A stretch of 64,000 nt of DNA from Patescibacteria group bacterium. Its GTDB lineage: Bacteria > Patescibacteriota > Microgenomatia > UBA8517. The notes beneath the pieces are model-generated. The model had not been told where the DNA came from, searched no databases, and saw only the letters and a program-made list of their open reading frames with translations. The translations under genes and the position numbers were made by a program. Below are positions 44,320 to 59,633 of this stretch, one piece after another. Location of the stretch: the NCBI GenBank assembly GCA_041742135.1, contig JBGSJG010000001.1, forward strand, positions 67,151 through 131,150, written 5' to 3'. How positions within the stretch are numbered: the first letter of the stretch is position 1; every line of letters starts with the position of its first letter.

Positions 44320-46005
44320 CTAAACCCCAGTCTGAGTAATTGCCTCTTCCTCTTTTCTGGGTATCCCAAAACCTTTTTTCTTGACCAGTGCAATAAAGTC
44401 ATTTAGCTCCGCAGAGCGAAGGAGAAAACTTACTAGTAAATACGTAAGGCCTCCGATGACTGCCGTCACGCCAGTTAAAAACATAAGATTAAATGTATAG
44501 CGAGTGTCTATCACAAAATGCTCAAAGTTTAGCCCTTGAATATTGCCCACAAAAGACAGCTCCTTTACCCACACTGAGCGGTCAAAAAATCTAATTATCA
44601 CAAACATCACACTTCCTGAAACAAACGAAGCTATGAAAGATTTGATTATGGGAACAATCGCAAAGAGAGTTCCACCGTTTAGCTCACGACTTAAGATGTA
44701 ATACATAGTGACTGCTTGGAAAATAATTCCGATGGTATATGCCGCCGCCAGTGACCAAGTGGGAAGATTCAGAAAAACGATAAAAATTACGCTCAGAATA
44801 GTACTTATAACAACACCCACTATGGACATTTTGACTGGTGTTGTGGTGTTGTGGCGTGCATAAAAAGCTCGAGACAAAAGAGCGGCAGCTGATTGAAAAG
44901 GAATACTCACGGCAAAAACCGATAAAACCAAACCCGTCTGAACAGTCGCTTCCCAGTCAAAGCGATCAGTTCCAAACAAAAGTCTCACAATGGGAATTCG
45001 AAGAACGATAAGAGTCGCTGCGACGGGAGTGACCAAAAAACTGATCTGATACAGGGTTTTTAGAAATGCTTTTTTAAACGCGTGGCGATCTTCGTCGATA
45101 TTTGAAAGCGTCGGTAAAGCCGCCTTGGCCAGAGAAACTCCAAACAGCGTTACCGGCATAATTCGGACTGCATCAGCCAAACTGTAATAAGTAAGGGCTG
45201 CAGAAGCAATCAAAGACGTAAAAAACAAGTCAGTAACACGGGTGATTTGTAAAAACCCAAGCTCGAGAACTCTCGGAGCTGCAAGTCGTGCGATTTTTTT
45301 AACTTCATCGGTCAGCTTTAGCGACCACATGAACCTAAAGCCAAGCCTCCGGGCTGTTGGAAACTGGACAGCAAAGTGTAAAAACGCCCCAAACACAGCG
45401 CCCAAGGCCGGCGCCATAAGGCCCAGATCATCCGCAAAGATTATCGTAAACACAATAATCCCGACGTTGTAGAAAATTGGCGCCATTGCTGAGACAAAAA
45501 AGTGCCTCAAAGATTCCAAGATGCCAGTTAAGACATAACTTACGATGAAAAAGCCCTGAGCAATTAAAAGTACGCGAGCCAAAGAAGCAATTGTCTGATG
45601 CTCGGCATCTGTATATCCCGGAGCAAAAATTGAGTATATCGGAGCGGCAAAGACGGCAAAAACGCAAGCAAAAACAATAAATCCCACAAGTGCAAGGTTT
45701 ATTATCCGCGCAGCCGTCTCGAAAGCAATATGCTTATCCTTTGCGTGAACCTTTGTAAAAACAGGAATAAAAGCCGAGGAAAAAATACCAAAAGCCAAAA
45801 GCTGAAACACCAAGTCGGGAAGCCTGAAGGATGCAAAGAAAAGCGAAAGTTCTTCCGGATCAAAAAAGTGCAAAAACAAGCGCTGGCGGACCAAACCCAA
45901 AACAGAGCTAAACATAACCATCGCCATAATCACAAAGGCTGCAGCCAAAATTGAATTTTGGGGACCGTTTAGAAAGTTTTTACCAGAGAGTAACAAGCGC
46001 TTCAT
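44320..46005 (-). CDS. murJ: Lipid II flippase MurJ (MviN)
   Basis: It is polytopic, about 14 TM helices over 561 aa, with the MurJ-like N-terminus …LGLVRQRLFLHFFDPEELSLFFASFRLPDLVFQLLAFGIFSSAFIPVF…. Confidence 0.8.
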   Translation of the reverse strand: MKRLLLSGKNFLNGPQNSILAAAFVIMAMVMFSSVLGLVRQRLFLHFFDPEELSLFFASFRLPDLVFQLLAFGIFSSAFIPVFTKVHAKDKHIAFETAARIINLALVGFIVFACVFAVFAAPIYSIFAPGYTDAEHQTIASLARVLLIAQGFFIVSYVLTGILESLRHFFVSAMAPIFYNVGIIVFTIIFADDLGLMAPALGAVFGAFLHFAVQFPTARRLGFRFMWSLKLTDEVKKIARLAAPRVLELGFLQITRVTDLFFTSLIASAALTYYSLADAVRIMPVTLFGVSLAKAALPTLSNIDEDRHAFKKAFLKTLYQISFLVTPVAATLIVLRIPIVRLLFGTDRFDWEATVQTGLVLSVFAVSIPFQSAAALLSRAFYARHNTTTPVKMSIVGVVISTILSVIFIVFLNLPTWSLAAAYTIGIIFQAVTMYYILSRELNGGTLFAIVPIIKSFIASFVSGSVMFVIIRFFDRSVWVKELSFVGNIQGLNFEHFVIDTRYTFNLMFLTGVTAVIGGLTYLLVSFLLRSAELNDFIALVKKKGFGIPRKEEEAITQTGV

Positions 46006-46320: not shown

Positions 46321-46869
46321 ATGGCGCGTGCGAAAGCCAGTATTAATTTGTTGCCTAGAGAAGATTTCGAAAGAACTATTCTTGGCCGCATCATGAAGTG
46401 GGCCTTAACCTCATTTCGTTTCATTGTAATTGCCGTCGAGTTTGTGGTGATTGCAGGTTTTATGCTCCGTTTTTGGCTCGATGTTCAAATCAGCGACTTG
46501 GACGATGAGATTAACCAAAAAGCCGCCCTTGTGTCTTCACGTTCAAGTTTTGAACAAGAATTCCGAAGCACCCAAGACAAACTTGCCGTACACAAACAAT
46601 TGACCGACAAAGCAAACCAACCAAGCGTTTACTTTGAAGAGGTGTCTCGCAATCTTCCTAGTGACACACAGCTTATTTCTTTTGCAAAAAGTGCTGATTC
46701 GCTGGAGATTATTGGTGCAACTTTAAACGAAGCTTCGATCACGGGATTTGTCAAAAATCTTGAGACCAATCCTCGTTTTACTTCCGTAAACTTGTCCTCA
46801 ATATCTACTCGCGACGACAGCCCTTTAGTTGAGTTTGTACTAAAAATATCGACAATAAATACAATTTAA
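46321..46869 (+). CDS. pilN: Type IV pilus assembly protein PilN
   Basis: It has the N-terminal INLLP motif followed by a TM helix (…KASINLLPREDFERT…FIVIAVEFVVIAGF…). Confidence 0.65.
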   Translation: MARAKASINLLPREDFERTILGRIMKWALTSFRFIVIAVEFVVIAGFMLRFWLDVQISDLDDEINQKAALVSSRSSFEQEFRSTQDKLAVHKQLTDKANQPSVYFEEVSRNLPSDTQLISFAKSADSLEIIGATLNEASITGFVKNLETNPRFTSVNLSSISTRDDSPLVEFVLKISTINTI

Positions 46870-46870
46870 T

Positions 46871-47551
46871 ATGGCAAATCGTTGGCAAGAAAATTATCAG
46901 CTTTATAAAAGATATCTGCGAAGCTTGGCTGCAATGTACCAAAAGCGCCAAGATGTACATCTGTTTGTCGAACTTTTACTTTCACTGTCGGTGATTGCCA
47001 TTTTTGGAGCATTTGCAATCAAGCCTACTTTAGTAACAATTTCCGACCTAAACAACCAAATTGCAGGAAAGAAAGAAACGGTTGCCCAGCTTGACGCCAA
47101 GATCCAAGCTCTCTCGGAAGCCCAAAACGTGTACCAGGAAAATTTGAGCGCAATTTTGCTTCTTAATAGTTCAGTCCCTCAAAATCCTGAGCCAGAAAAA
47201 TTTATTAGACAGGTCGAAGGCTTGGCCAAGCGCAATTCCGTATTAATTTCCAGTCTTGATACCTCAAATTTGAAATTAACCTCGCATGAAATACTCACAG
47301 AAGAAGTGGACCAGTCACCCAGCGCCGAGGGTGCAGCTGTCGATTATTTTCCTGCCGCCGCCGCAAGTTTTGAGCTTGAAACAAATTTCAACGGCGTTTA
47401 CGATCAATTAATCGCCTTTTTGCGTGAATTCGAAAATCTTCGAAGGCCGATGTATATCGACACTATAACTTTTCGTTCTTCCTCTGAAGAGCTAAGCCGC
47501 GAAATTGCTTTATCTATCATGGGCAGGCTGTCTTATCTACCAAATGAGTAA
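46871..47551 (+). CDS. PilO-like type IV pilus assembly protein
   Basis: It has a short cytoplasmic N-terminus, a TM helix, a coiled coil (…QIAGKKETVAQLDAKIQALSEAQ…) and a C-terminal domain. It is translationally coupled to pilN with a 1-nt gap. Confidence 0.5.
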   Translation: MANRWQENYQLYKRYLRSLAAMYQKRQDVHLFVELLLSLSVIAIFGAFAIKPTLVTISDLNNQIAGKKETVAQLDAKIQALSEAQNVYQENLSAILLLNSSVPQNPEPEKFIRQVEGLAKRNSVLISSLDTSNLKLTSHEILTEEVDQSPSAEGAAVDYFPAAAASFELETNFNGVYDQLIAFLREFENLRRPMYIDTITFRSSSEELSREIALSIMGRLSYLPNE

Positions 47552-47918
47552 AAGAGAAAAAACACCACCAGTTGTAATTTTTGCAATTTTGTCAGTGATT
47601 ACTGTTTTTGTTTGGGTAGGTTTTGAAACCTACAGAGCATTCACCAAAGACCCAACACCAACTGTGCCTTTAGAAGTAACCCGCGCTTTAGACCCAACTC
47701 TTGATGAAGAGCAACTGGCAGATGTGGTCAGACGGATCAATCTGACAGAAGACGAAATCGGAGACACCACACTAGTGCAACCAGAAACTCCAGAACCAAC
47801 TGAAACGCCAGCACTAACCCAGACAGAAGAACCAGTTGAAACAACTGAGACCGCACTTGAATCAGGTGGTGATGAACAAGCTATACTGGAAGAACTAGAT
47901 CAACTATTGGAAGAATAA
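47544..47918 (+). CDS. Small N-anchored protein with an acidic Thr/Glu-rich C-terminus
   Basis: The start is taken at the internal ATG (MSKREK). The TM helix is VVIFAILSVITVFVWVGF. The tail is …TETPALTQTEEPVETTETALESGGDEQ…. Confidence 0.45.
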   Translation: MSKREKTPPVVIFAILSVITVFVWVGFETYRAFTKDPTPTVPLEVTRALDPTLDEEQLADVVRRINLTEDEIGDTTLVQPETPEPTETPALTQTEEPVETTETALESGGDEQAILEELDQLLEE

Positions 47919-47919
47919 C

Positions 47920-49344
47920 ATGCAAAACAAATTGAAAATTCCGTCACTTCTTGGGGTGTTTGTCTTAGTTCTTGGACTTGCCGTGGGAGTTGCCCTCATA
48001 GGCCAAAGACAGATATTTCGCCTTGGAGCATCCGCAGACTCAGCTCCACAGGATGTCAGGATTTCCAATGTTACCGACTCTTCTTTTACGGTTTCTTGGT
48101 ACAGTACTAAACCAACTGTTGGATATATCAGTTGGGGTAGCACAACAGCTTTAGGGCAAAGCTCTGAGGTGTCTGGCCTTGATACTAAAACCGTTCACTC
48201 TGTCACTGTAGACGAACTTTCGGCGAGTACAAATTACTACTTTGTAATCAACTCCGGCGGTGTTGAGTTTGATAATAATGGCATAGCCTGGTCGGTTGCC
48301 ACAGGGCCTACTTTGTCTGTAAACGCGACAGCGCTTTTGGCATCAGGAACAATTCGTGCAGCAGACGGCTCCCCGGCAAGCGACGTGTTGGTCTATATAA
48401 ACGGGGGCGGATTAGCTCAAGTTTCTGGCGTAACCTCACAAAATGGTACCTGGACAATACCGCTGTCATCTGCCCGAAGCAGAACACTTTCTGCGTATGC
48501 AAACTTAACAGCCAACGACATCCTTGACGTGTACGTACAAGCAGGAGGTTTAGGAGTAGCTACCGCGCAAGTTCTGGTCTCTCAAACAAATCCTACTCCC
48601 GAAATAGTTTTAGGGCAGTCGTACGATTTTAGAAATGACCAGACAATAGACTCAGGAGGCTTACCAGAAGCAGATTTATCTTTGCCTGAAAACGAAGAAG
48701 AATTGGGGCCCGGTGGGCTTGATCTTTCAAGCCAAGAGACCGGGTCTTCATCGGAACGTCCTGTAACTATCGAAAGCATTGATGAGGCAGAAGAAATTGT
48801 TTATACCGACACACCAGAGTTTTTTGGCGAAGGCCCCGCTGGGTCTGTCATCACGATTACTGTTGAGTCGGATCCTGTTACTGATGAGGTGAGGGTCACT
48901 AACGGAGGTGAGTGGAGTTGGAGCCCACCCACTTCACTTCCAGATGGCGAACACACTATAACCATAAGCTGGATTGATGCTTCTGGATTTTTAAGAAAAA
49001 TTACTCGTTCGTTTGTTGTTGCAGCAGCAGAGGATGAACCCGGGTTTGAATCCACTCCGTCTGGGGCTACGTCTACCCCCAAGCCAACAGCGTCACCGAC
49101 GCCCACGCCCACAGCTACACCAAAAGCAACTAAGTCACCCACGCCCTCCCCAACACCGACTGCAACGATTAAGCCAACTGTAACCCCGAGCGCCACTCCC
49201 GCCCCGACACGCATAAGCATTCCTTCAACAGAATCTGGAGTGCCAGAAGCAGGTGTCGCAACCCCCACTCTTCTTTTGGCATTTGTTGGACTAGCTCTAT
49301 TTATCTCTGGTATATTTATTAGTAGAAAATCATTTAACTCATGA
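47920..49344 (+). CDS. Cell-surface protein with an N-terminal signal or anchor, an FN3-like domain, a Pro/Thr-rich stalk, a C-terminal VPEAG motif, a hydrophobic helix and an RK tail (sortase-substrate-like)
   Basis: The FN3-like domain is …VRISNVTDSSFTVSWYS…. The stalk is …PTPTPTATPKATKSPTPSPTPTATIKPTVTPSATPAPT…. The C-terminus is …SGVPEAGVATPTLLLAFVGLALFISGIFISRKSFNS. Confidence 0.6.
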   Translation: MQNKLKIPSLLGVFVLVLGLAVGVALIGQRQIFRLGASADSAPQDVRISNVTDSSFTVSWYSTKPTVGYISWGSTTALGQSSEVSGLDTKTVHSVTVDELSASTNYYFVINSGGVEFDNNGIAWSVATGPTLSVNATALLASGTIRAADGSPASDVLVYINGGGLAQVSGVTSQNGTWTIPLSSARSRTLSAYANLTANDILDVYVQAGGLGVATAQVLVSQTNPTPEIVLGQSYDFRNDQTIDSGGLPEADLSLPENEEELGPGGLDLSSQETGSSSERPVTIESIDEAEEIVYTDTPEFFGEGPAGSVITITVESDPVTDEVRVTNGGEWSWSPPTSLPDGEHTITISWIDASGFLRKITRSFVVAAAEDEPGFESTPSGATSTPKPTASPTPTPTATPKATKSPTPSPTPTATIKPTVTPSATPAPTRISIPSTESGVPEAGVATPTLLLAFVGLALFISGIFISRKSFNS

Positions 49345-50171
49345 ACCCACCTGCTCAAAATTTTGATCCGCCTGTAGCTTTCCCTCAAGTTGAGTCTTTT
49401 CCAAATCCTGACATGGGGACACTGCCACCAGCCCCTACAGCCGTAACTCCAACAGATGTACCTCCAACCATCATTACTTCAACAGCTGATTCAGGGTCTC
49501 CCAAAAAGAAATTTCCTAAACAGATCGCAGCAGTACTGGGCATAGTTGTGTTGCTACTTGGTGTTGTTGCTGGAGTCGTCTTAGTCCGCAGTCAACAATT
49601 AAATAATGCTTCTGCTTGGGAGTGCTCACTGTATACTTTTGGTTTGGGCCAAGACGGCTCAGTCACGGTTCAAAATGGTTCAAGTACCAATCAACCTCAG
49701 CAAGAAGCTCAAGTCTATATAAACGACATATTAATCGAGAGATTCACAGTTCCCGCTCTTAACGCTGGAGCAGGAACAACACTGGGAAGCGTTAGTGTAC
49801 CGCAAGACGAGCCTTATACTTGGAAAATTCAAGGAACACTTGATTGCCAAAACGTTGGAAGCGTAGGTGGAAACTCTGACTCGGCAATTTGTTTAAATGT
49901 TGTGGCCTACGACACACAGTGGAACGTATTAAGCGCATCTGAGCTTTCAGAACTTAACGAAGGTGATACAGTGAGATTTGCAGTTTCCGGCACTGCTACA
50001 ACGGGAACCATCGACAGTGCTAGGTTTAGAATTAATAGCGGCACCCCAGTTGAAACAACAGAAAAAAAGCCGGGTAGCGAAGAGTTTTTTGTGGAGTACG
50101 AAATTCCTGCAAGCACCCAAAGCTTTAGCATTAGTGCCCAGTTGCATCACAATACGGCTGGTTGGTTTTAA
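49341..50171 (+). CDS. N-anchored bitopic protein with a Pro-rich cytoplasmic tail and a C-terminal GWF domain
   Basis: Translation MNPPAQNFDPPVAFPQ…KKKFPKQIAAVLGIVVLLLGVVAGVVLV… The C-terminal ~95 aa (…VVAYDTQWNVLSASELSEL…LHHNTAGWF) are paralogous to the C-terminus of 51127..52299. Confidence 0.6.
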   Translation: MNPPAQNFDPPVAFPQVESFPNPDMGTLPPAPTAVTPTDVPPTIITSTADSGSPKKKFPKQIAAVLGIVVLLLGVVAGVVLVRSQQLNNASAWECSLYTFGLGQDGSVTVQNGSSTNQPQQEAQVYINDILIERFTVPALNAGAGTTLGSVSVPQDEPYTWKIQGTLDCQNVGSVGGNSDSAICLNVVAYDTQWNVLSASELSELNEGDTVRFAVSGTATTGTIDSARFRINSGTPVETTEKKPGSEEFFVEYEIPASTQSFSISAQLHHNTAGWF

Positions 50172-50176
50172 GACAT

Positions 50177-51124
50177 ATGAACAATACTTTTTTACATAAA
50201 AATTTAACAACCATAATAGTCGTTGCTGCCACTGTCCTTCTAGGTGGGGTTGCGGTATTTACCGGGCTTAGGCTTTTTCAGCTTAGAAACGAGCCAGTAG
50301 CTCCAAATGCTCCCCAAAGCGAGCCTCAAGCGGCAAACGAAGGCGTCATTTTGACCATTCCTTTGGAAACTGTAAAAAGAGGCCCCGGACAGCATCTCTT
50401 GGCAACTCAAGATGTATCCCAGTATAGCGGCCTTGTTTGCGAAGTGACTGCAACTGCCCAAAACCAAGGAAGCGTACACCCAGACAACGACTTGGTAGTA
50501 GCATCGGGGGGCGGTAGCGTTGTTGTTCCGGATGTAGAAAGAGAGGCAGGCGGTGTCTTTTCAGCAAGTGGAACTCTGACTTTGGGAAGCACTGTTACCG
50601 TAACTCTTGAAATGGGTCCCGATGAGGTTTTTTCAGCAGGAATTGACGTCTCACTTGATTGTATAGTCCCCACACCAACCCCGACACCGCAAATTGTTAC
50701 GCAGTCCTGTACTGATTTAGCTTTTGCGCTTTCTACTCCAACCTCCACGGCTGCAGCGACGCCTACTGCAACCCCAACGAGCACGCCTACAGCTACACCA
50801 ACTGCCACATCAACTCCAAACATGACACCTGAGTATCCTTGCAACAGTAAATGTACACTGGATAGCCAGTGTCAAAAGACAGACTCAAACTATGTTTGCC
50901 ATGACGAAGCAGGGCAAACAACTTGCAGGCACCGCGCATACACAAGCCAAGAAAACTGTCAGCCGCCAACAAGTACACCAACAAGTACCGCAACCACAAC
51001 TGCACGCGCCACTGCAACAGCAACACCCGCTGCCTTGCCACAAGCAGGAGTTGGAACTCCAACAATTGTGGGTATTGGTGCAGGCATATTGTTACTACTG
51101 GGTGCTTTAGCTCTCGCTCTCTAA
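50177..51124 (+). CDS. Surface protein with an N-terminal anchor or signal, a Cys-rich module, a Thr/Pro/Ala-rich stalk and a C-terminal LPQAG motif plus hydrophobic helix
   Basis: The ATG is at 50177; the ORF track starts at a TTG at 50162. The N-terminus is …GGVAVFTGLRLFQLRNEPVAPNAPQSEPQ…. The Cys-rich module is …TPNMTPEYPCNSKCTLDSQCQKTDSNYVCHDEAGQTTCRHR…. The C-terminus is …AALPQAGVGTPTIVGIGAGILLLLGALALAL. Confidence 0.6.
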   Translation: MNNTFLHKNLTTIIVVAATVLLGGVAVFTGLRLFQLRNEPVAPNAPQSEPQAANEGVILTIPLETVKRGPGQHLLATQDVSQYSGLVCEVTATAQNQGSVHPDNDLVVASGGGSVVVPDVEREAGGVFSASGTLTLGSTVTVTLEMGPDEVFSAGIDVSLDCIVPTPTPTPQIVTQSCTDLAFALSTPTSTAAATPTATPTSTPTATPTATSTPNMTPEYPCNSKCTLDSQCQKTDSNYVCHDEAGQTTCRHRAYTSQENCQPPTSTPTSTATTTARATATATPAALPQAGVGTPTIVGIGAGILLLLGALALAL

Positions 51125-51126
51125 AT

Positions 51127-52299
51127 ATGTTCGATCAAGGACCGCAAGCTTCTCAAACACAAACTATCACTACGGCTCCTCAGGGTGGGAATAAAAAAAG
51201 GTGGATTATACCCGTTATTGTTCTTGCAATAACGCTGCTTGGAGTGGGAGCTGGGGTGTTTCTGACGCAACAAGGAAAAGACATTGTCCCAAGTGGCGCC
51301 ACAGGTATATGCCAACACGACGAGTGTAGCCCCAATGACGCCCCCACCTGTCAAACAAATGGTGCTGGCAATACTGGCTATCAGTGCACATGCACAGCTA
51401 TACTTCAGCCGGATCTGAGGGATTGTATCTACGGAGTTTATGTGTGGAGCTGTGGAAATTACAATCCGAGTGCTTGCCAACCAGCCTCTGCCACAAACCC
51501 ACCCGGGCAGGAATGTTCTCCTGGGCAAGTGGACACGGGCAGCTGTGGAGGCTCTTGTGCCAGTAACCAAAGACCCATAAAGGTTTGCCAAAGCAATGGC
51601 ACATGGGGCCTGACGCAATGTACCAGCGATTCAAGTTGTACTACTCAAGCCACCAATCCGCCAGGGGCTACTAATCCTCCAGCTGGAGGATGTACTGGTG
51701 GAGGAAACACACCGATGACTTGTACTGGCCCTGGAACTTTTGAAGTTCAAACCTGTAATTGTCCCAACAATTCTGGTACTAGCTACCCCGGATGTATTTG
51801 TAATGACAACTGCAGTACCCAAAACGTAACCCTAGCTTCCGGGCAATCTCAAACATTTAATGTTTCGGCCCCCGTTTGTGGAGCCGCACAAGTTGACGTT
51901 AATAACTACGGAGGAGCATGTGCGGGATCCGGCGCAGTATGTACCGCACCACCAGATGCCACAACAAGCTCTTCAGCGTCACCGACAGCTACACCTACAG
52001 ACCAAATTTCAGCCCGCTGTATAAACATAATGGCATACGACACAAACTGGAGCGCTCTTTCGGCTGAGGAACTTTCTGAAATTGGCCCCGGCGACACCAT
52101 CAGATTTGTGGTTGCTGGCAACACATCAAGTGGATCGTTTACCAAGGCAAGGTTTACTATAAATGGAGTCCTTCGCCAAGAGGTGTCTCAAAAGCGGCCA
52201 GGGACAGAAGAGTTTTATGATGAATACACAATTCCGGCAGACGCAACCGGACTTACCGTTGATGCTCAAATTTATCACACTGTTTTGGGTTGGTTTTAA
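51127..52299 (+). CDS. Cys-rich surface protein with an N-terminal anchor and a C-terminal GWF domain
   Basis: The start is taken at the ATG at 51127 (MFDQGPQ…), directly after the stop of the upstream gene. It has more than 30 Cys in repeated CxxC/CxC contexts. The C-terminus …MAYDTNWSALSAEELSEI…IYHTVLGWF is paralogous to 49341..50171. Confidence 0.55.
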   Translation: MFDQGPQASQTQTITTAPQGGNKKRWIIPVIVLAITLLGVGAGVFLTQQGKDIVPSGATGICQHDECSPNDAPTCQTNGAGNTGYQCTCTAILQPDLRDCIYGVYVWSCGNYNPSACQPASATNPPGQECSPGQVDTGSCGGSCASNQRPIKVCQSNGTWGLTQCTSDSSCTTQATNPPGATNPPAGGCTGGGNTPMTCTGPGTFEVQTCNCPNNSGTSYPGCICNDNCSTQNVTLASGQSQTFNVSAPVCGAAQVDVNNYGGACAGSGAVCTAPPDATTSSSASPTATPTDQISARCINIMAYDTNWSALSAEELSEIGPGDTIRFVVAGNTSSGSFTKARFTINGVLRQEVSQKRPGTEEFYDEYTIPADATGLTVDAQIYHTVLGWF

Positions 52300-52304
52300 T
52301 TAAT

Positions 52305-53534
52305 ATGAATCTTAAAAAAGACTGGATAAAAATCGTTTTGATATTAGCCACCATCGTCTTGGGTGGAGTCGCTATGTTCATTGCTCTCAGGCTTTACAAC
52401 CAAAGAGATCAAGCAGTTGCACCCAATGCTCCACAAAGTAATCCAGCAGCCCAGGAAACAGGTGCGTGCCAAACTTGGACTTTAACTTTCGCCTCCCCCA
52501 CGAGTTCCGCCACGTCTAGCTCAACAGCATCTTCCACAGCCAGTTCAACTCCTACCCCGTCCCCGATTGATTGTGTAGAGGGAGAATTTACCGAGACCTT
52601 TGCCAGCTCAAACCTGAATCAATACAACACAGGAGGATCAGGCTCAGCGAGTGTCAGTTCGGGGCAGCTCAACATGACTGTGCAGGTACGCGACGACAAC
52701 ACGGGGAGCTGGGATCCAAGATACTATATCGAGGCAGAAAGACCTATAAGTGGAGCTTTTGACACATCACTTATCGTCAAGAGTCTTTCCGGGCCTAATG
52801 ACTATCAAGGATCGGTACGACTCAACATAGACGATACCGGAGAAACAGGTGCCGCTCCTACGCAAGCTGTAGTCATTGCTGTCGAGAAGGGCCAAGGCAC
52901 TGCACGAGACGTTGAATTTCATACAAACACGAGTTACGCAGCTGGTAATTTTGTACGCAGAAGCATTCCTGCCACAGGCGATGTCACTTTGAAAATCGAA
53001 AGAACCACAAGCGGAGCGGTAATTGGCTATTATGATGTTGGGGCAGGATTTGTAAAACTAGGCGAATATACGGGCATTACCAAACCAATGTACGTACGCC
53101 CCGCTCTCAGATCAGACGACGTTCACAATCGAAACACCCAAGCAACCGCTCAGGTTACAGGCAGCATCGACAACTGGCTTGTAAGCTGTATAACACCCAC
53201 AACAACCGCAACGAGCACTGCGACCTCTACTGCTACTTCTACTTCAACCTCAACATCTACACCAAACATGACGCCTGAATATCCTTGCAATAGTGCTTGC
53301 ACAAGCAACAGCCAATGCCAAAAAACTGATTCCAAATATATCTGCTATAGCCAGACGGGCAGTTGCCGACACTCGGACTACCCAGCGCAATCCAATTGTC
53401 TGCCCCCTGGAGTTACAGGAACACCAAACCCAACACTGCCTCCTGTTCCCCAGTCTGGCGTGAACTTGCCAACTGTTCTTGGAATTGGGCTTGGAGCTCT
53501 TCTAATCCTTGGGGCTTTGGGACTGCTGCTTTAA
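52305..53534 (+). CDS. Surface protein paralogous to 50177..51124, with an N-terminal anchor, a Ser/Thr-rich linker, a beta-rich domain, a Cys-rich module and a C-terminal VPQSG motif plus hydrophobic helix
   Basis: The N-terminus is …GGVAMFIALRLYNQRDQAVAPNAPQSNPAAQ…. The Cys-rich module is …TPNMTPEYPCNSACTSNSQCQKTDSKYICYS…. The C-terminus is …LPPVPQSGVNLPTVLGIGLGALLILGALGLLL. The ATG is at 52305; the ORF track starts at a TTG at 52290. Confidence 0.6.
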   Translation: MNLKKDWIKIVLILATIVLGGVAMFIALRLYNQRDQAVAPNAPQSNPAAQETGACQTWTLTFASPTSSATSSSTASSTASSTPTPSPIDCVEGEFTETFASSNLNQYNTGGSGSASVSSGQLNMTVQVRDDNTGSWDPRYYIEAERPISGAFDTSLIVKSLSGPNDYQGSVRLNIDDTGETGAAPTQAVVIAVEKGQGTARDVEFHTNTSYAAGNFVRRSIPATGDVTLKIERTTSGAVIGYYDVGAGFVKLGEYTGITKPMYVRPALRSDDVHNRNTQATAQVTGSIDNWLVSCITPTTTATSTATSTATSTSTSTSTPNMTPEYPCNSACTSNSQCQKTDSKYICYSQTGSCRHSDYPAQSNCLPPGVTGTPNPTLPPVPQSGVNLPTVLGIGLGALLILGALGLLL

Positions 53535-53535
53535 G

Positions 53536-55971
53536 TTATCTCCACGAGGAAATCCAATAATAACTTTTATCCCACCACTCGGGAACAAAAATCGCGCTCC
53601 AGTGTGGATAAAAATAAACAAATGCCAAAAATATTACCAGCGATGGAAGAAGAAGCCACTTTATTCTTTTTAAGAGACTCGCCAAAATGATTGCCATGAA
53701 GGGCACGGAAGGCAAATAGTGATACAAAAACATAATTCTGGGGCTAATCGCCCAAGGGGTAAAAAGAACCAAGTAGGAAAACACCAAGACTAAATAAACC
53801 ACCAATCGTTTTTTAATGGCCACAAATAGCGAAAGCACGACCGACAGCCCTCCTAGCCAGAAGAAAAATGGATTGCCGTGTGCATAGATGTTAGCGACAA
53901 TTCCATCTTTGTAATTTTGATAAAGGTACACGGGGCGCAGTGTCAAAGGCCAGCTCCACCAGGCTGATGTATAAGGGTGAGTGGCGTTTAGGCCCGAGTG
54001 ATACCACCACATTTGTTTTTGCATTCCCCAAAACGTTTCAAGGTTATGCCCAAAGGTGAACATCGGCAAGTAACTTGCCAAGTAAATCACCGGAGGAATA
54101 AGCAAATACCAAAGCAAACTGAGCTTGATTTTGGGTCTTAGTAAAACAAACGACAGCGCAAAGACAGGCAACATCCACATCGTGCTCCACTTAGTTGCAG
54201 CCGCGAAACCTAAAAATATTGCGCTTATCAAATCGCGCTTTGCCAAAAAGTAATAATAAGAAATCAAGGCAAAAGCGACAAAATAAACATCCGCAGTGCC
54301 AATGCGCGACATGGTTAAAACAAGCCCATCAAGAGCGATAAACAAAGCGGCAAAAATAGCAATGTCGCGGCTAGCAAATAATTTTTTGGCAATTTTATAA
54401 ACCATCAAAACTATTGCGACTCCCAATAGTGCCCCTGGAAGCCTCCACGCAAACGAATGTACACCCAGAACGCCCATACTTGCCGCCATAATTTCTTTCG
54501 CCAACGGCGGATGTGTCCACTCGTATGCAAAGCCCTCGGGGTGAGCACTACTCCAGTGCCAAGGCTTTGGGTCTCCCACAAGCATCTGGCGCGCCGTAAA
54601 CGCATGATAAATCTCATCAAAATAATCCTGTGGGGGAAAATCCAGGCGGACCAAGCGAATAACTAGTGAAAAAAGCAAAATTCCAAAGAGCAATCGCTTT
54701 TCCCATTTAGAGTTTATTCTGTCATCTATTTCTTCTCTCTTAAGACTTTTAAAAAAATTTCTAATGCTTGCAAGTAAAAACTTTGAAGAGGGAACTAGAG
54801 TTTGGCGAATCAGATAAACAAACAAAACAAGATTGATCGCGATTACGATTTTAACAATTATGTCGGGCAGAACTTCTGCAAAATCGTCGGTTATCCACTT
54901 GTAGGAATAAAACATATTCAAAACATAAGTTATCGAAAGCCCGATATAAACGATCCATAAATTCGGCGTTATTGCCGCGGCGATGGCAAGCGGAGCCAAA
55001 GCCGGAAGCATGTGCCTCTCGTGCATACTGGTGAAAAACAAAAAATTAGTTAAAAGAAGGATTGCCAAAGCGTGATAGGGTTTAGCGGTGGTAAGTTTAT
55101 TTTTGAAAACCGCAATTAAACTCACAAAACCCAAGGCTAGAACTCCAAAATTCTTAGCGCTTACAATTCCAGGCAAATCCTTCTGCCAAAAGCCACTTAG
55201 GCCCCAAAAGTTAAATGCGTTGACGCTCGTGTAAGGGTATTGCCCGAGTGTTGCCTCAAATCGGCTGTAAATGAAAGACAAGAGATTAGTAGAACCCGAA
55301 AAAGGATAAAACAACAAAATGATTGTTAGTGCAAAAACGCTTCCGAAGCCAACCATACGGGTAAACTTCCACTTCTTGTAAATCATAAGAGCCACAAGTA
55401 CCGGCAACATCATTAAAGCTTGGGGTTTCACCAGCACTCCCCAACCCAAAATTGCCGCCGAGAGTGGCCACACATTAAATGACAAAATTGCCAGTAGCGT
55501 ACTTAGGCTTGTCAACACATCAACTTGTCCCCAAAAAGTAGAATTGGCCAACACAGCCGGGTTAAGTAAGTATGCGGCTGAAGCCAAAATTGCAGTTTTC
55601 GGACGTGATTTTAAAACGTGATAAATAACGTAACCAACCCCAAGGTCAGCCAGTATCGCGGGCAGCTTAAACAAGACTACAGTATCCAGAAGGTTCGTTT
55701 CTTGGATTCTGGCCAATAATGCCAACACATAAATATATCCGGGGAGGTAATCACTCCAAGCCGCGTAAAACTGGCCAAAGCCAAGACTTGCCGCACGCTC
55801 GGCCCACGCAATAAACGTATTTTGATCAAGACTCAGGGTTCCGAAAGAGGCCAAGCTAAAACGTACTACAAAGCTTCCTAAAAGTAGAAGTACAATGGGG
55901 GACATGAGAAAGTTTTTGATCATTCTTTTTTTATCAACACTTTTTATATATTTCATAAGCTCTCCGGGCAC
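53536..55971 (-). CDS. Large polytopic GT-C-type glycosyltransferase-like membrane protein (PMT/ArnT-like), possibly two tandem modules
   Basis: It is 811 aa with more than 20 predicted TM helices. The second half has a DE-containing first-loop motif (…RLDFPPQDYFDEIYHAFTARQM…) typical of GT39/GT83 families. The first half has a similar topology (…LDQNTFIAWAERAASLGFGQFY…). Confidence 0.6.
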   Translation of the reverse strand: MPGELMKYIKSVDKKRMIKNFLMSPIVLLLLGSFVVRFSLASFGTLSLDQNTFIAWAERAASLGFGQFYAAWSDYLPGYIYVLALLARIQETNLLDTVVLFKLPAILADLGVGYVIYHVLKSRPKTAILASAAYLLNPAVLANSTFWGQVDVLTSLSTLLAILSFNVWPLSAAILGWGVLVKPQALMMLPVLVALMIYKKWKFTRMVGFGSVFALTIILLFYPFSGSTNLLSFIYSRFEATLGQYPYTSVNAFNFWGLSGFWQKDLPGIVSAKNFGVLALGFVSLIAVFKNKLTTAKPYHALAILLLTNFLFFTSMHERHMLPALAPLAIAAAITPNLWIVYIGLSITYVLNMFYSYKWITDDFAEVLPDIIVKIVIAINLVLFVYLIRQTLVPSSKFLLASIRNFFKSLKREEIDDRINSKWEKRLLFGILLFSLVIRLVRLDFPPQDYFDEIYHAFTARQMLVGDPKPWHWSSAHPEGFAYEWTHPPLAKEIMAASMGVLGVHSFAWRLPGALLGVAIVLMVYKIAKKLFASRDIAIFAALFIALDGLVLTMSRIGTADVYFVAFALISYYYFLAKRDLISAIFLGFAAATKWSTMWMLPVFALSFVLLRPKIKLSLLWYLLIPPVIYLASYLPMFTFGHNLETFWGMQKQMWWYHSGLNATHPYTSAWWSWPLTLRPVYLYQNYKDGIVANIYAHGNPFFFWLGGLSVVLSLFVAIKKRLVVYLVLVFSYLVLFTPWAISPRIMFLYHYLPSVPFMAIILASLLKRIKWLLLPSLVIFLAFVYFYPHWSAIFVPEWWDKSYYWISSWR

Positions 55972-57034
55972 AACCCCGTATGACTATTTTACCCGACTTG
56001 CTGATGCAATGCTTCATGGGCGAATCCACCTAACAACTAGCTCTCCATGGCTAAACGAATTGATCCCAATCAGTGGCTTGTATTATGTTGCTTACCCGCC
56101 AATGCCGGCGTTTCTTTCATTGCCATTTGTGGCAATCTTTAAAAGCCTTTGGCAGCAGCAGTTTCTGGCTCACATCCTTGGAGCAGGCATTGTATGCGTA
56201 AATGCTGCTCTGGCATTTAGCATTCGCAAAAACAGAACTATCGCTCTTTGGGTAGGTCTTTTGGCTGGCTTTGGAACAGTCATTTGGTTTTTAAGCTCGG
56301 TTGGGTCTTCTTGGTATCTGGGCCAGCTTTCGGCAGCATTTTTTCTTTCGTTGGCACTTTACGAGTCGTTCGCCAAAAAACGTCCAATTCTTGTGGGCTT
56401 GTTACTTGGTGCGGCATATTTATCTCGTATCCATACGATTTTGTCGGTTGTATTTTTTATACATCTTTTTCGGGCAGAATTTAAAAAGATTTTTCTGTTT
56501 CTTTTGGGCATACTTCCTGCACTCGCCATAAACGCACTTTATAATTTTGCTCGCTTTGGAGTTTTGTGGGACAAAGGTTATGTCCTTATTCCCGGAGTTC
56601 TTGAGGAGCCTTGGTACAAACTTGGAATAATTCATCCAAGTTATATTGTTCGGCATTTAAAAGTAATCTTCTTGTCTCTTCCAGTTTTTCAAGAAAAGTT
56701 CCCCTTCATTCTTCCCTCTTGGGGAGGGCTTGCTATCTGGGTTACGTCCCCTGCTTTGTTTGTGGCTATATTGGCGCCTTTTAATAAACCTGTTATAAAA
56801 ATGGCCGTACTTTCCGGAGGATTAATCGCAGCCCCAATACTTATGCACGGAACTACTGGTTTCGCTCAATTTGGCTATAGATTCTTAGTTGATCTCATTC
56901 CCTTCATTTTTTTACTTATCATGCATGCCCTGCCGGAAAAGCTTAAATGGTGGCACTGGGCACTTTTATTTTTTAGTATTCTAGTTAATGCGTGGGGAGT
57001 GATCGTGATTAACAAACTCGGTTTAGCAGGATAG
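55895..57034 (+). CDS. Polytopic membrane protein, a possible second GT-C-like glycosyltransferase, transcribed divergently from 53536..55971
   Basis: It is 379 aa with about 11 TM helices (…GLYYVAYPPMPAFLSLPFVAIF…). The annotated 5' ends of the two divergent genes overlap by 77 nt, so the true starts are probably internal. Confidence 0.5.
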   Translation: MGDMRKFLIILFLSTLFIYFISSPGTTPYDYFTRLADAMLHGRIHLTTSSPWLNELIPISGLYYVAYPPMPAFLSLPFVAIFKSLWQQQFLAHILGAGIVCVNAALAFSIRKNRTIALWVGLLAGFGTVIWFLSSVGSSWYLGQLSAAFFLSLALYESFAKKRPILVGLLLGAAYLSRIHTILSVVFFIHLFRAEFKKIFLFLLGILPALAINALYNFARFGVLWDKGYVLIPGVLEEPWYKLGIIHPSYIVRHLKVIFLSLPVFQEKFPFILPSWGGLAIWVTSPALFVAILAPFNKPVIKMAVLSGGLIAAPILMHGTTGFAQFGYRFLVDLIPFIFLLIMHALPEKLKWWHWALLFFSILVNAWGVIVINKLGLAG

Positions 57035-57037
57035 CAA

Positions 57038-58105
57038 TTGCTAAGGCGCACCTTCTGTCCTAAAATACTTTCCACGATGGCCAGTAACGCTGAACGTCCA
57101 GTGTGCGAGTATGGAGATGTAATCATTCGCGATTTTAAGCTTGAGGGCATGGTCGCGGCAGATCACAAGAGGGTCAATGTTATTATGCCAAGCGATTCCT
57201 CCGGAGTCGTTCATGCGGAGTCTATTACAAAAATAGTACGAGACCACCTAGATTACAGGGAGAACTCATCGGCAAGAATAGACCAAGCTAGACACGAAGC
57301 TAGGCTGAGGCCAGAAATAGGCCGTGAGTACTTAGAAATGTGTGCTGCGACAGAAGCATACTGGAGCAGCCCAGAACCTGCTCCTGTTCTTTTACTCCCT
57401 TGCATCGCTTTAAGTGCGGATACGGTAGGCTTGACGGAAATCGAATCTGACACTGAAGGGGTACTTGCCGACTTGGCTGGCCAAAGGCGTAACGTCTTGA
57501 TGGCAATGCTGATGGTTCGCAGTGTGACCGCTCAAACAGGCGCACTTTTAGGAGGAGACTTCGCGGCAGACGTGCCATTAACAGACCTGGAAGAACAGCA
57601 TACGGCCTTAGGTGAAGCAATCGAAAGTGCTATTCGCGACTTAAAGAACAGTATCCCAAACCGGCAGGCGTTAGACGTGGTGACAAGCGAAATAAACGCA
57701 TCCGTAGCCGGAGCAAAATTTATACACGGTATATCTCCGTTTGACACCACTCAAATAATTGAACTGGGGCAGGGAAATCTAAATTTGGCACGGCCTACGC
57801 CAAGCGACATTTCGCTCGCAGCCAGCATTGATAGATTGGCTATCCCCTCAAATACTAACCTGCGCTCTTTGGTTATACTGACTGCATCTGAAGCTGCACT
57901 CCAGCTTGCATATAATATCGATAGTACCCCACCTCCAAACATCGCCAAAATTTCTTCTGCAGTTAAAGCCATTAACGTCCTTCTGCCAGCGAACCCAGAA
58001 TCTTCGAACACAAAGGAGATCTTAGAAGCAATGCCGGGTCAGTTTCCTATGGTTGAGCGGTTTGCTTCCACTTGTTTTTCCAAAAAAAGAGGCCTTTTTG
58101 GATAG
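57038..58105 (+). CDS. Hypothetical Ala-rich protein of atypical composition
   Basis: The ORF is 355 aa with no recognised motifs. It looks visibly more GC-rich than its neighbours by eye. Confidence 0.4.
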   Translation: MLRRTFCPKILSTMASNAERPVCEYGDVIIRDFKLEGMVAADHKRVNVIMPSDSSGVVHAESITKIVRDHLDYRENSSARIDQARHEARLRPEIGREYLEMCAATEAYWSSPEPAPVLLLPCIALSADTVGLTEIESDTEGVLADLAGQRRNVLMAMLMVRSVTAQTGALLGGDFAADVPLTDLEEQHTALGEAIESAIRDLKNSIPNRQALDVVTSEINASVAGAKFIHGISPFDTTQIIELGQGNLNLARPTPSDISLAASIDRLAIPSNTNLRSLVILTASEAALQLAYNIDSTPPPNIAKISSAVKAINVLLPANPESSNTKEILEAMPGQFPMVERFASTCFSKKRGLFG

Positions 58106-58134
58106 TCTTCATCTTGACTTGAATATAGTATATA

Positions 58135-58602
58135 ATGACTAAAGTGGACAATCAGAATCCTCAAAATAACCCTCCTCAGGGCGAAACGCCCAAGCCCACT
58201 GGCCCTAAAATTTTAATAGTCGAAGACGACACAACTCTTTCAAAGATGTATGCAATGAAGTTTCAAAGTGAAGGCTTTGAAGTACTAATCGCCAACGACG
58301 GGGCTCGCGGATTGGCACTTGCCGCAGAGGCCAACCCTGCTCTTATACTTCTGGACATGATGCTTCCAAAATACTCGGGCATTGAATTTTTAGAGCAACT
58401 GCAACAGCATTCTCAGCCCATAAAGATTCCGATTATTGCTTTGTCTAATTTAACTGAAAAGCAAGAAGCGGATCGTGCGCTTCAGCTTGGAGTCAAAGAA
58501 TATTTAGCTAAAGCAATGAATACTCCGGAGGATGTGGTGAAAAAAGTAAAGCAGTATCTAGGTATGGCTCAGTCTCCTACTACCCCTTCTACCCAAGCGT
58601 GA
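58135..58602 (+). CDS. Stand-alone response-regulator receiver (REC, CheY-like) domain protein
   Basis: Motifs …KILIVEDDTTLSKMY…ALILLDMMLPKYSG…YLAKAM… cover the acidic pocket, the phospho-acceptor Asp and the conserved Lys. Length is 155 aa with no output domain. Confidence 0.75.
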   Translation: MTKVDNQNPQNNPPQGETPKPTGPKILIVEDDTTLSKMYAMKFQSEGFEVLIANDGARGLALAAEANPALILLDMMLPKYSGIEFLEQLQQHSQPIKIPIIALSNLTEKQEADRALQLGVKEYLAKAMNTPEDVVKKVKQYLGMAQSPTTPSTQA

Positions 58603-59633
58603 ACTTCTTCCCAGTTGCCACTTCTGGGGACAAATACATAAAGGCCTTTGTAATCCGTTGAGTAAGGAGGATTAAAAAGAAGTTCTTCAGGAATTACTTG
58701 GGAAACCATGTTTCCACGCGCATCAACCAACATACGAACCACCTGTGAAAGCTCTTGGTCAGACAAATCAGTTTCCGTAATCTCTTTAAATGTTTTCCAA
58801 AGAGTAAGTAGCTTTGTTGGCGAGAGCAAAACTTGAGGCGTCACAACAGTGTCTTTGATAGCTACGATTATTTTTTGCTGTCGGGCCGCACGAGCCAAGT
58901 CGTTGCCTTCAGTCGGATCCGTAGAATGCCGAGACCTGGCAAACTTTAAAGCGGTTTGCCCGTCCATTAGCTGTACTCCCGCATCAAAAGCCACAGTTTC
59001 GTATCGACACAAAAATTCAGGATCTCCCCCGCAATCGTCGTCCTCGCGGCCGACAATTGGAAAGCGCGCATCAACAAATGCTCGCTCTACATTAACTTTC
59101 ACCCCTCCCAAAACGTCAACCACTTTTACAAAGCCTTCAAAATTAATTCCTAACGCGTAGTGAATTGGAAGTCCGGTAACTTCTTCGACTACAGATTTTG
59201 CTAAAATTATTCCCCCGCCTGACGCCTTTTTGTTTCCAATTAAATATGCGCCATTTATCTTGTCGTCCAAATTAACGACCCAAATGTCGCGCGGAATAGA
59301 TATTAAAGAAACTTTGCCGTCTTGTCGGTTTATCGAAGCTACGATCATCGTGTCCGTAACAAACGGATTTTTTTCTCCATCCCCTGCAATTCCCAAAAGA
59401 AGAATATTGGTTTTGTTGTCTGTTTGTTCCACCAAACCAGCTTGTGGCAATAAAAATACCCGAGCCATGGATAAATAGTTCCCAAGTGCTGTTGGAGCCA
59501 AAATGCTTTTAAGTAAAACAAACATGCCCCATAGAACCAATATCACACTAGCAAGTAGTGTTAAACGCACAAACCATAAGTGGCGCGACAAGAGTCGTCT
59601 TTTTATTTTCCCCAAGGTACCTCGTAGCTTCAT
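58569..59633 (-). CDS. LytR-CpsA-Psr (LCP) family cell-envelope phosphotransferase
   Basis: It has an N-terminal TM helix followed by the LCP core (…NILLLGIAGDGEKNPFVTDTMIVASINRQDGKVSLISIPRDIWV…). Confidence 0.8.
   Translation of the reverse strand: MKLRGTLGKIKRRLLSRHLWFVRLTLLASVILVLWGMFVLLKSILAPTALGNYLSMARVFLLPQAGLVEQTDNKTNILLLGIAGDGEKNPFVTDTMIVASINRQDGKVSLISIPRDIWVVNLDDKINGAYLIGNKKASGGGIILAKSVVEEVTGLPIHYALGINFEGFVKVVDVLGGVKVNVERAFVDARFPIVGREDDDCGGDPEFLCRYETVAFDAGVQLMDGQTALKFARSRHSTDPTEGNDLARAARQQKIIVAIKDTVVTPQVLLSPTKLLTLWKTFKEITETDLSDQELSQVVRMLVDARGNMVSQVIPEELLFNPPYSTDYKGLYVFVPRSGNWEEVHAWVEGVVGD

Follow-up and report, generated by a model that had tools for sequence, protein, structure and literature searches.

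Introduction

Protein O-glycosylation by lipid-linked sugars and membrane glycosyltransferases of the GT-C fold has been established experimentally in Actinobacteria, one thermophilic Firmicute and streptococci. In mycobacteria, O-mannosylation of secreted proteins is started by a protein O-mannosyltransferase (PMT), and the mannose is then extended by the GT87 enzyme PimE (PMC12757957); the Mycobacterium tuberculosis enzyme MtPMT (Rv1002c) prefers Pro-rich Ser/Thr sites (PMC12331936). In Caldicellulosiruptor bescii, a GT39 gene is located beside the genes of its substrates, proteins with Pro/Thr linkers, and its deletion abolishes glycosylation (PMC6151902). The pgf cluster of Streptococcus mutans comprises the genes of the synthase PgfS, of GT-C transferases (PgfM1) and of the substrates themselves, which are sortase-anchored Ser/Thr-rich adhesins (PMC12041528). 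Here we describe a locus from a 64-kb stretch of a Patescibacteria group bacterium genome (contig JBGSJG010000001.1), referred to below as the window. It encodes an 811-aa protein, which is a conserved fusion of two different GT-C modules, and a divergently transcribed 379-aa polytopic protein. On balance, we think it probable that the two-module enzyme uses polyprenyl-phosphate sugars and O-glycosylates Ser/Thr/Pro-rich extracytoplasmic tracts on the outer face of the membrane. The main features are listed below.

53536-55971, minus strand: 811-aa open reading frame (ORF), two GT-C modules
53536-54711, minus strand: C-terminal module of the 811-aa protein (aa ~421-811), PMT/GT39-type, proposed initiating protein O-glycosyltransferase
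54712-55971, minus strand: N-terminal module of the 811-aa protein (aa 1-420), ALG6/PIG-M/PimE-like, proposed glycan-extending transferase
55895-57034, plus strand: 379-aa ORF, GT-C fold, divergent from the 811-aa ORF
47920-53534, plus strand: five surface-protein genes (ORF translations), candidate acceptor substrates
58569-59633, minus strand: LCP gene (PF03816, TIGR00350)

The three genes singled out in the initial annotation (those of the 811-aa, the divergent polytopic and the LCP proteins) were all found in their places. Its actinobacterial setting had to be abandoned: homologues of both membrane proteins come almost exclusively from Woesebacteria, Microgenomates and Patescibacteria assemblies, and by this origin the host, with a GC content of ~45% in the window, is a Woesebacteria-like member of the Candidate Phyla Radiation (CPR). 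The comparison set consisted of 80 species-representative loci analysed by local tblastn, supplemented with four locus look-ups; in counting conserved neighbours, only loci with a sufficiently long flank were included in the denominator.

The C-terminal half resembles the bacterial GT39 enzymes MtPMT and Cbes_1864 of C. bescii in the Pfam models that it matches, the Asp-Glu pair of the first loop, a second Asp, an R-x2-F/Y motif and the absence of a MIR domain (PMC12331936). The gene of Cbes_1864 is likewise adjacent to genes of proteins with Pro/Thr-rich tracts (PMC6151902). The differences are that the PMT module described here is fused behind a second GT-C module, belongs to a CPR host, and gains only 62.8 bits with the NCBIfam Pmt equivalog NF058602, whose threshold is 800. 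The N-terminal half has the same compact GT-C fold as PimE (GT87), ALG6 (GT57) and glycosylphosphatidylinositol (GPI) mannosyltransferase I (GT50), with template-modelling scores (TM-scores) of 0.56-0.66, but passes none of their Pfam models and is covalently joined to the PMT module. The division of labour that we propose is the same as for the mycobacterial PMT and PimE, which are separate enzymes (PMC12757957).

The streptococcal Pgf and GtrB/PgtC2 systems follow the same logic, as a GT-A enzyme makes the polyprenyl-phosphate sugar and a GT-C enzyme transfers it, outside the cell, to Ser/Thr-rich disordered surface regions (PMC12041528). The likeness to Pgf extends to GT2 proteins from two distant CPR loci, L080 and L081, which align with PgfS over the full length, and to YfhO genes in related loci, whereas the GT-C enzymes considered here are PMT-type and ALG6-like rather than YfhO-type, and the window contains neither an epimerase nor a GT2 gene. 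ArnT (GT83) provides the highest query TM-score of the 379-aa model, 0.57, and the same GT2 proteins align with ArnC. However, the 379-aa protein has no ArnT or PMT_2 sequence match, is shorter (379 vs ~550 aa) and lacks a periplasmic domain, and the organism, a monoderm CPR bacterium, has no lipid A. LcpA-GspA of Actinomyces oris, the precedent on which the initial annotation relied, is a real case of an LCP enzyme glycosylating a sortase substrate (PMC6381275). Here an LCP gene and sortase-type substrates are also found in one region, but it is only the inherited gene order that ties the former to the latter.

Two GT-C modules of the 811-aa protein

Residues 432-811 match three Pfam models above the gathering thresholds: PMT (PF02366) with 41.0 bits (threshold 22.7), PMT_2 with 47.8 bits (26.1) and PMT_4TMC (PF16192) with 57.7 bits (32.4). 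The PMT/ArnT-like DE loop noticed earlier is thereby substantiated. The loop reads YFD452-E453IYH (window 54613-54618). From 65 homologues a profile was made and aligned with solved fungal enzymes (7.5e-15 for 9i5k, 6.9e-14 for Pmt1, 6p25_A, and 3.5e-7 for Pmt4). In this alignment 'yfDEvyha' falls on 'vvFDEVHFG' of yeast Pmt1, with D452-E453 on FDEVHF of both 6p25_A and 9i5k_A, where the catalytic pair of Pmt1 is D77-E78, and D561 and R745-x2-F748 (window 53728-53739) fall on its 'LLD' and 'RQMF'. D452-E453, D561 and R745-I-M-F748 are each conserved in at least 90% of the 65 homologues. They correspond to D74, D176 and R441-x2-Y444, which are essential in MtPMT (PMC12331936). Because of the low NCBIfam score, the C-terminal half is classified by sequence as a divergent member of GT39 and not as an orthologue of the characterised Pmt. 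Mannose, implied earlier from the PMT precedent, should not be taken for granted; the transferred sugar could be another.

For residues 6-420, no Pfam match was obtained even at E<=10. An AlphaFold2 model of this half was built from 65 sequences and had a mean predicted local distance difference test score (pLDDT) of 92.2 and a predicted TM-score (pTM) of 0.90. It shows a GT-C fold with the conserved module of transmembrane helices 1-7 (TM1-7) and two external-loop helices. A Foldseek search of PDB returned at E<0.1 only structures with the GT-C fold, that is, glycosyltransferases and the PIG-U subunit. The top nine matches (E from 3e-5 to 9e-4, TM-scores 0.55-0.66) represent five proteins:

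Yeast ALG6: E 2.8e-5, query TM-score 0.66
PIG-U: E 5.5e-5, query TM-score 0.59
PimE: E 1.7e-4, query TM-score 0.56
GPI-mannosyltransferase I: E 1.8e-4, query TM-score 0.63
ALG3: E 5.9e-4, query TM-score 0.55

Relatives of the N-terminal half were collected by searching 1.84 billion representatives exhaustively with phmmer. In total, 3178 were found, 1698 of them at E<=1e-10; they are either stand-alone proteins of ~400 aa or fusions of 770-1270 aa, the long ones carrying PMT, PMT_2 and PMT_4TMC behind the N-module. Some relatives score marginally above Pfam thresholds (PIG-U 43.7, GT87 27-31, Alg6_Alg8 25.8 bits). A profile of the N-terminal half with 58 stand-alone relatives matched ALG6 (3.2e-11, 356 positions) and GPI-mannosyltransferase I (1e-9) by sequence. 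The N-terminal half belongs to the ALG6/GT87/PIG-M superfamily group, where no single CAZy family can be assigned to it, and is a homologue of lipid-phosphate-sugar transferases acting on glycan acceptors. As for placing the two membrane proteins in families by profile hidden Markov models, this succeeded with the C-terminal half of the 811-aa protein, which passes the PMT models, and failed with its N-terminal half and the 379-aa protein, which have no Pfam family.

Five residues of the N-terminal half are invariant (D49, W56, Y75, P77 and R319 in ORF numbering), and K182, H317 and E318 are conserved in at least 90% of sequences. D49 (window 55825-55827) is retained in all 65 close and 59 distant homologues and in the model immediately follows TM1, where the first external helix begins. 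The motif H317-E-R-H320 is encoded at window 55012-55023. In the alignment to ALG6, D49 coincides with the Asp of 'LYGDFEAQ', presumably ALG6 D69 given an 18-residue tag offset, and 'TRxHER' coincides with 'FQVHEK'. An Asp at this position is the catalytic base common to PimE, ALG6, ArnT and PglB, and K195 and H321/H322 of PimE bind the donor phosphate (PMC12041525). The positions of D58, K195 and H321/H322 in PimE are similar to those of D49, K182 and the His motif near 320 (H317-H320); this resemblance, which is one of sequence spacing and not of superposition, is suggestive (PMC12041525). We considered the label 'GT-C_B' for the N-terminal half and discarded it, as PimE, ALG6, ArnT and PglB all are GT-C_A (PMC12041525).

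Profiles of the two halves align with each other (HHalign probability 96.6%, E 7e-10, 309 columns), and the suspicion that the 811-aa protein is a tandem of GT-C folds was correct. Mis-assembly joining two genes was ruled out by the presence of the fusion as a single ORF in 73 of the 80 species loci. The ~800-aa architecture occurs in more than 100 protein clusters with 45-73% identity. Fused relatives of up to 1271 aa with the same N-half-plus-PMT layout are known outside Woesebacteria, including one cluster named Clostridiales. The clusters bear such names as 'glycosyltransferase family 39 protein [Clostridiales bacterium]' and 'Gpi18-like mannosyltransferase' (a literature search for 'Gpi18-like' yielded nothing relevant). 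The family 39 label is already attached to the fusion in databases, and neither the enzyme families nor the logic of the pathway is new. The possibility that both membrane proteins are unrelated transporters was rejected: GT-C-fold matches were obtained for both, and transporter structures appear in Foldseek results only at probability <=0.1 and TM-score <0.2.

The linker between the modules, 'KFLLASIRNFFKSLKREEIDDRINSKWEKR', is rich in Lys and Arg, and both N-termini are basic. Between the external HERH motif and the linker there are three helices, and the helix following the linker leads to the DE loop. Because of this arrangement, both active sites of the modelled protein would face outward. 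The NCBI call for the gene is 806 aa, with ATG at 55956; by the alignment of homologues, the start may be M17 at 55923. The ORF ends 1 bp from the stop (53534) of the last surface-protein gene, tail to tail. Its adjacency to the surface-protein cluster, pointed out in the initial annotation, is retained in Woesebacteria-like loci.

The divergent 379-aa protein

The 379-aa protein is polytopic and is transcribed divergently from the 811-aa gene. Neither the sequence nor a 69-sequence profile has a match in Pfam, NCBIfam or PDB sequences, and precomputed Pfam domains are absent from all 120 best homologues. BAK, which surfaced as a PDB match in both sequence and profile searches, was dismissed as noise (E>2). 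Some homologues are named 'ArnT-like' by the Joint Genome Institute.

The AlphaFold2 model is confident (pLDDT 94, pTM 0.93), and all 17 best Foldseek matches have the GT-C fold. Among the matches are ALG12 (1.6e-4), a GPI-transamidase subunit, PimE, ArnT, ALG9, STT3, AftD, PMT and AftB. The profile of the family also aligns with the PMT half (HHalign 96.2%, E 2.5e-9). The assignment of the adjacent divergent protein to GT-C is confirmed by these two lines of evidence, and the family represents a branch of the GT-C superfamily that lacks a model of its own, with no entry in CAZy, Pfam or NCBIfam. The sole conserved acidic residue in the first external loop is E55 (window 56057-56059), invariant in 69 close homologues; three distant homologues have either Asp or Glu at this position. 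D30 is retained in 54 of the 69 homologues and is Asn in the remaining 15 (22%).

The fusion gene has no more persistent genomic partner than this family, which is present in 57 of 68 assessable loci and kept in the rearranged loci L080, L081 and L083. In public annotation the gene is shortened to 310 aa (P0121), whereby the conserved TM1 and first loop are lost. The 5' ends of the 811-aa and 379-aa ORFs (window 55895-55971) overlap by ~20-60 bp, according to which starts are chosen; in relatives such as locus L004 the respective genes do not overlap and are separated by a gap, of 52 bp in L004.

Split and rearranged loci

In three distant CPR loci (L078, L080 and L081), the N-terminal and PMT halves are encoded by separate adjacent genes. 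The lengths of the halves are 402 and 446 aa in L080 (Curtissbacteria) and 406 and 445 aa in L081, with a slight gene overlap in both. The gene order in the L081 operon is 379-family, N-half, PMT, GT2; in L080, the 379-family gene and a YfhO gene precede the halves and the GT2 gene follows them. The GT2 proteins align over the full length with polyprenyl-phosphate sugar synthases, namely PgfS (276-280 bits) and ArnC (175-176 bits). Since the same halves are fused in 73 of 80 loci and are split into adjacent genes elsewhere, by the Rosetta-stone logic they are predicted to act together. A gene for the N-half only was found in L082, a contig of the Parcubacteria group; together with the split loci, it is useful for dating the fusion event.

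In L080 and L081 there are no PT-rich (Pro/Thr-rich) surface-protein genes and no LCP gene nearby. The fused Firmicute homologues L086 and L087 stand alone among unrelated genes, also without PT-rich neighbours and LCP. In the rearranged locus L083 (36% identity), an LCP gene is followed by about six GT-C genes including the fusion, and then by PT-rich anchored ORFs; in L077, a PT-rich ORF of 1346 aa adjoins the fusion gene. From the rearranged loci (L080, L081, L083, L086 and L087) it therefore follows that the conserved functional core consists of the two halves and the 379-family, that a lipid-phosphate-sugar donor is implied, and that the LCP and surface genes are non-obligatory partners.

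Surface proteins, LCP and gene order

The genes surrounding the core in the window, and the unlinked sortase gene, are as follows.

12897-13568, minus strand: sortase gene (PF04203 at 7e-23)
44320-46005, minus strand: MurJ
46321-46869, plus strand: PilN (PF05137)
46871-47551, plus strand: PilO-like gene
Between the PilO-like gene and the surface-protein genes: 137-aa ORF
57038-58602, plus strand: two genes between the 379-aa gene and LCP (355-aa ORF and response-regulator receiver)
57038-58105, plus strand: 355-aa ORF, without homologues in related loci
Beyond the LCP gene: UvrD/PcrA helicase, then a FemAB-family gene

The five surface proteins are membrane-anchored or secreted, and tracts rich in Pro and Thr (Ser) occur in four of them. 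For the fourth gene, the probable start is 51127. In the entire window, Pro/Thr-rich ORFs are found only at 47920-53534. The 80 related loci contain 128 PT-rich ORFs, of which 124 are directly 3' of the fusion gene, 2-7 kb past its start. Three of the surface proteins end in [LV]P[EQ][AS]G (VPEAG, LPQAG and VPQSG; window 49200-49344, 51020-51124 and 53430-53534), followed by xx-PT and a hydrophobic helix. Ala or Ser stands where LPXTG has Thr, a basic C-terminal tail is present in the first protein only, and no NCBIfam LPXTG model matches the surface proteins. A C-terminus with LPx[AS]G and a hydrophobic segment is shared by 77 of these 128 PT-rich ORFs vs 23 of 1496 other ORFs in the 80 loci, and it may be a lineage-specific sortase signal. 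The likely processing enzyme is the sortase encoded 35 kb from the cluster and not linked to it; a sortase is nearly ubiquitous in Microgenomates (PMC6744442). Of the coupling between anchoring and glycosylation suggested in the initial annotation, the part concerning Ser/Thr/Pro-rich neighbours with sortase-like signals stood. The sortase gene is located directly downstream of a 717-aa ORF (window 12897-15718 for both, minus strand) with a weak Baseplate_J-like match.

Two of the genes, 49341-50171 and 51127-52299 (plus strand), encode anchorless paralogues with Pro-rich N-termini, located before a membrane helix, and a common C-terminal domain ending in '...HH..LGWF', which is found in most related loci; the former has a weak CARDB match. 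The first surface protein contains fn3 and Big_13 domains. Its gene, together with PilN, the PilO-like gene and the 137-aa ORF (46321-49344, plus strand), forms a unit present in ~90% of related loci, with no PilM, PilB, PilC or pilin gene near it. The fn3/Big_13 protein may be a part of a pilus apparatus rather than an independent adhesin.

The LCP gene lies beyond the 379-aa gene at a distance of 1.5 kb; its distance from the start of the 811-aa gene is 3.7 kb. Its identity, proposed earlier, is firmly supported by PF03816 (107.8 bits, 7e-31, threshold 24.6) and TIGR00350 (93.2 bits, threshold 62.3), and the sequence has a hydrophobic segment at its N-terminus. In Woesebacteria-like loci it belongs to a collinear block of ~20 kb: HrcA, MurJ, PilN, PilO, small ORF, fn3/Big_13 protein, surface proteins, fusion, 379-family, an optional slot, LCP, UvrD, FemAB. 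The optional slot is occupied in relatives by an extra GT-C gene (often; YfhO or PMT_2) or by a response regulator. Conservation of the neighbours is as follows.

379-aa family: 57/68 assessable loci
LCP: 60/65 assessable loci
UvrD: 63/64 assessable loci
FemAB: 56/58 assessable loci
fn3/Big_13 protein: 58/62 assessable loci
PilN 53/59 and PilO 56/60, at 6-8 kb from the fusion gene

Because housekeeping genes such as UvrD are conserved as well as LCP, proximity within the lineage is weak evidence of function, and adjacency alone is insufficient. The LCP enzyme as an integral component of the system is therefore unsupported: its co-occurrence with the fusion is indistinguishable from inherited gene order. 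The earlier suggestion that it participates had been drawn from proximity, which UvrD and FemAB share in equal measure, and LCP is absent from L080, L081, L086 and L087.

The two genes at 57038-58602 are probably outside the system. A stand-alone response-regulator receiver occupies about the same position in ten related loci. The 355-aa ORF has no Pfam match and no tblastn match in the 80 related loci, and the same is true of the 292- and 454-aa ORFs between HrcA and MurJ (window 42006-44172, minus strand); all three are lineage-specific insertions into the collinear block.

Proposed mechanism and alternative explanations

The folds, family memberships, conservation of catalytic residues, neighbourhoods and the relation between fused and split genes described above serve as the starting point. 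A GT2 enzyme encoded outside the window would load a sugar onto polyprenyl phosphate, and the lipid-linked sugar would be flipped outward. The PMT/GT39 module would then transfer the first sugar from the lipid-phosphate donor to Ser or Thr in Pro-rich, unstructured tracts, and the ALG6/PimE-like module would add a further sugar to the PMT-initiated glycan. The 379-aa protein may be the third component, acting either as a further extending transferase or as a non-catalytic lipid-binding partner in the manner of the PIG-U accessory subunit. We infer in this way the acceptor, the sugar, which module acts first and what the 379-aa protein does. The most probable substrates are the five adjacent membrane-anchored proteins (four PT-stalked and three with LPx[AS]G-type signals), and the enzyme probably has others as well. 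As general cell-envelope enzymes, LCP and the sortase would stand outside this machine.

A number of observations weigh against this mechanism. The 'DE' of PMT aligns with T33-R34 of the 379-aa protein, which has no conserved canonical first-loop Asp; the catalytic Asp/Glu loop expected earlier is present in the C-terminal half of the 811-aa protein, as D452-E453, and is not kept in its canonical form here. The C-terminal half falls far short of the NCBIfam Pmt threshold. The adjacency of PT-rich genes is confounded by lineage-wide collinearity, with UvrD, HrcA and FemAB equally preserved, and such genes are lacking in L080, L081 and beside the Firmicute homologues. The 64-kb window encodes no polyprenyl-phosphate sugar synthase or flippase, and literature searches on GT39/GT-C in Patescibacteria produced no biochemical or glycoproteomic evidence from any CPR bacterium. 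Finally, related loci contain extra GT-C genes (YfhO, PMT_2), and a polysaccharide acceptor is possible because these enzymes decorate teichoic acids in other bacteria.

The last point leads to a rather unlikely alternative, in which the GT-C enzymes build or decorate a wall glycopolymer (teichoic-acid-like or a secondary wall polysaccharide), the LCP enzyme ligates it to peptidoglycan, and the surface proteins are bystanders. Cell-envelope genes do abound nearby (MurJ, LCP, FemAB), LCP accompanies the fusion in 60 of 65 loci, YfhO or PMT_2 genes are inserted between the 379-aa gene and LCP in relatives, and about six consecutive GT-C genes stand beside LCP in L083. In Bacillus and Listeria, YfhO homologues attach sugars to teichoic acids, but in streptococci enzymes of this family glycosylate proteins as well (PMC12041528). 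Moreover, the combination of PMT, PMT_4TMC and the DE / R-x2-F signature is typical of GT39 enzymes acting on proteins, the Firmicute fusions and the split operons of L080 and L081 have no LCP nearby, and the proximity of LCP is conserved no better than that of UvrD. Another explanation retains the mechanism of protein O-glycosylation and differs from ours only in the dedication to neighbours: the system would be general and genome-wide, and its place beside PT-rich proteins would be inherited gene order, the neighbours not being preferred substrates. The collinearity of the ~20-kb block including HrcA, UvrD and FemAB, the Firmicute homologues among unrelated housekeeping genes, and the retention of enzyme genes only in L080 and L081 agree with this. 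We nonetheless judge it unlikely, as PT-rich anchored ORFs are still directly 3' of the fusion in the rearranged L083, the long PT-rich ORF of L077 is beside the fusion gene, and all four PT-rich ORFs of the window are in the cluster.

TfpW of Pseudomonas is a GT-C pilin arabinosyltransferase, and by analogy the GT-C proteins might glycosylate type IV pilus components. PilN and the PilO-like gene (46321-47551) are in the same block, kept 6-8 kb from the fusion gene in 53 of 59 and 56 of 60 loci, and type IV pili are a hallmark of CPR (PMC6744442). This explanation is highly improbable, given that no pilin, PilB or PilC genes occur between or next to the glycosyltransferase genes, and that rearranged loci keep the glycosyltransferase set and lose PilN and PilO. 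Returning to O-glycosylation of the PT-rich tracts, a more specific version can be put forward tentatively, which we consider less likely than not: three GT-C modules, the PMT initiator fused to the ALG6/PimE-like extender and the 379-aa family, would form an 'assembly line' that builds a defined oligosaccharide on the PT stalks of lineage-specific LPx[AS]G-anchored proteins in Woesebacteria. If so, ultra-small episymbionts would display a glycoprotein coat, and the fusion would be direct genomic evidence for ALG6/GT87-like enzymes as general extenders of bacterial O-glycans. The surfaces of CPR/Patescibacteria mediate attachment to host cells.

Several elements appear to be undescribed in the literature that was searched: the N-terminal half as an ALG6/PimE-like module, which makes the protein a natural initiator-extender fusion; the split operon, which includes a synthase of the PgfS type; the 379-aa GT-C family, for which there is no model; and the setting beside LPx[AS]G-anchored PT-rich proteins in CPR bacteria. 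The fusion and the split operon with the PgfS/ArnC-type synthase constitute a genomic 'Rosetta stone' that predicts jointly acting enzymes. The value of the locus is in a concrete prediction (glycans on specific PT stalks) rather than in a new principle, and a compact single-polypeptide system is open to heterologous testing.

Other features of the window

The rest of the window is occupied by housekeeping genes, including those of S7, S12, AlaRS, FtsK, RNase J, PNPase, IF-2, NusA, DnaK/DnaJ/GrpE and HrcA. Fusions of rpoB and rpoC are known in Helicobacter and Wolbachia, and a literature search for such a fusion in CPR found nothing relevant. In the window, a 2342-aa ORF (2055-9083, minus strand) contains the complete set of RpoB domains (aa 69-1074) and, after it, that of RpoC domains (aa 1115-2258), and is a fused beta-beta' RNA polymerase gene.

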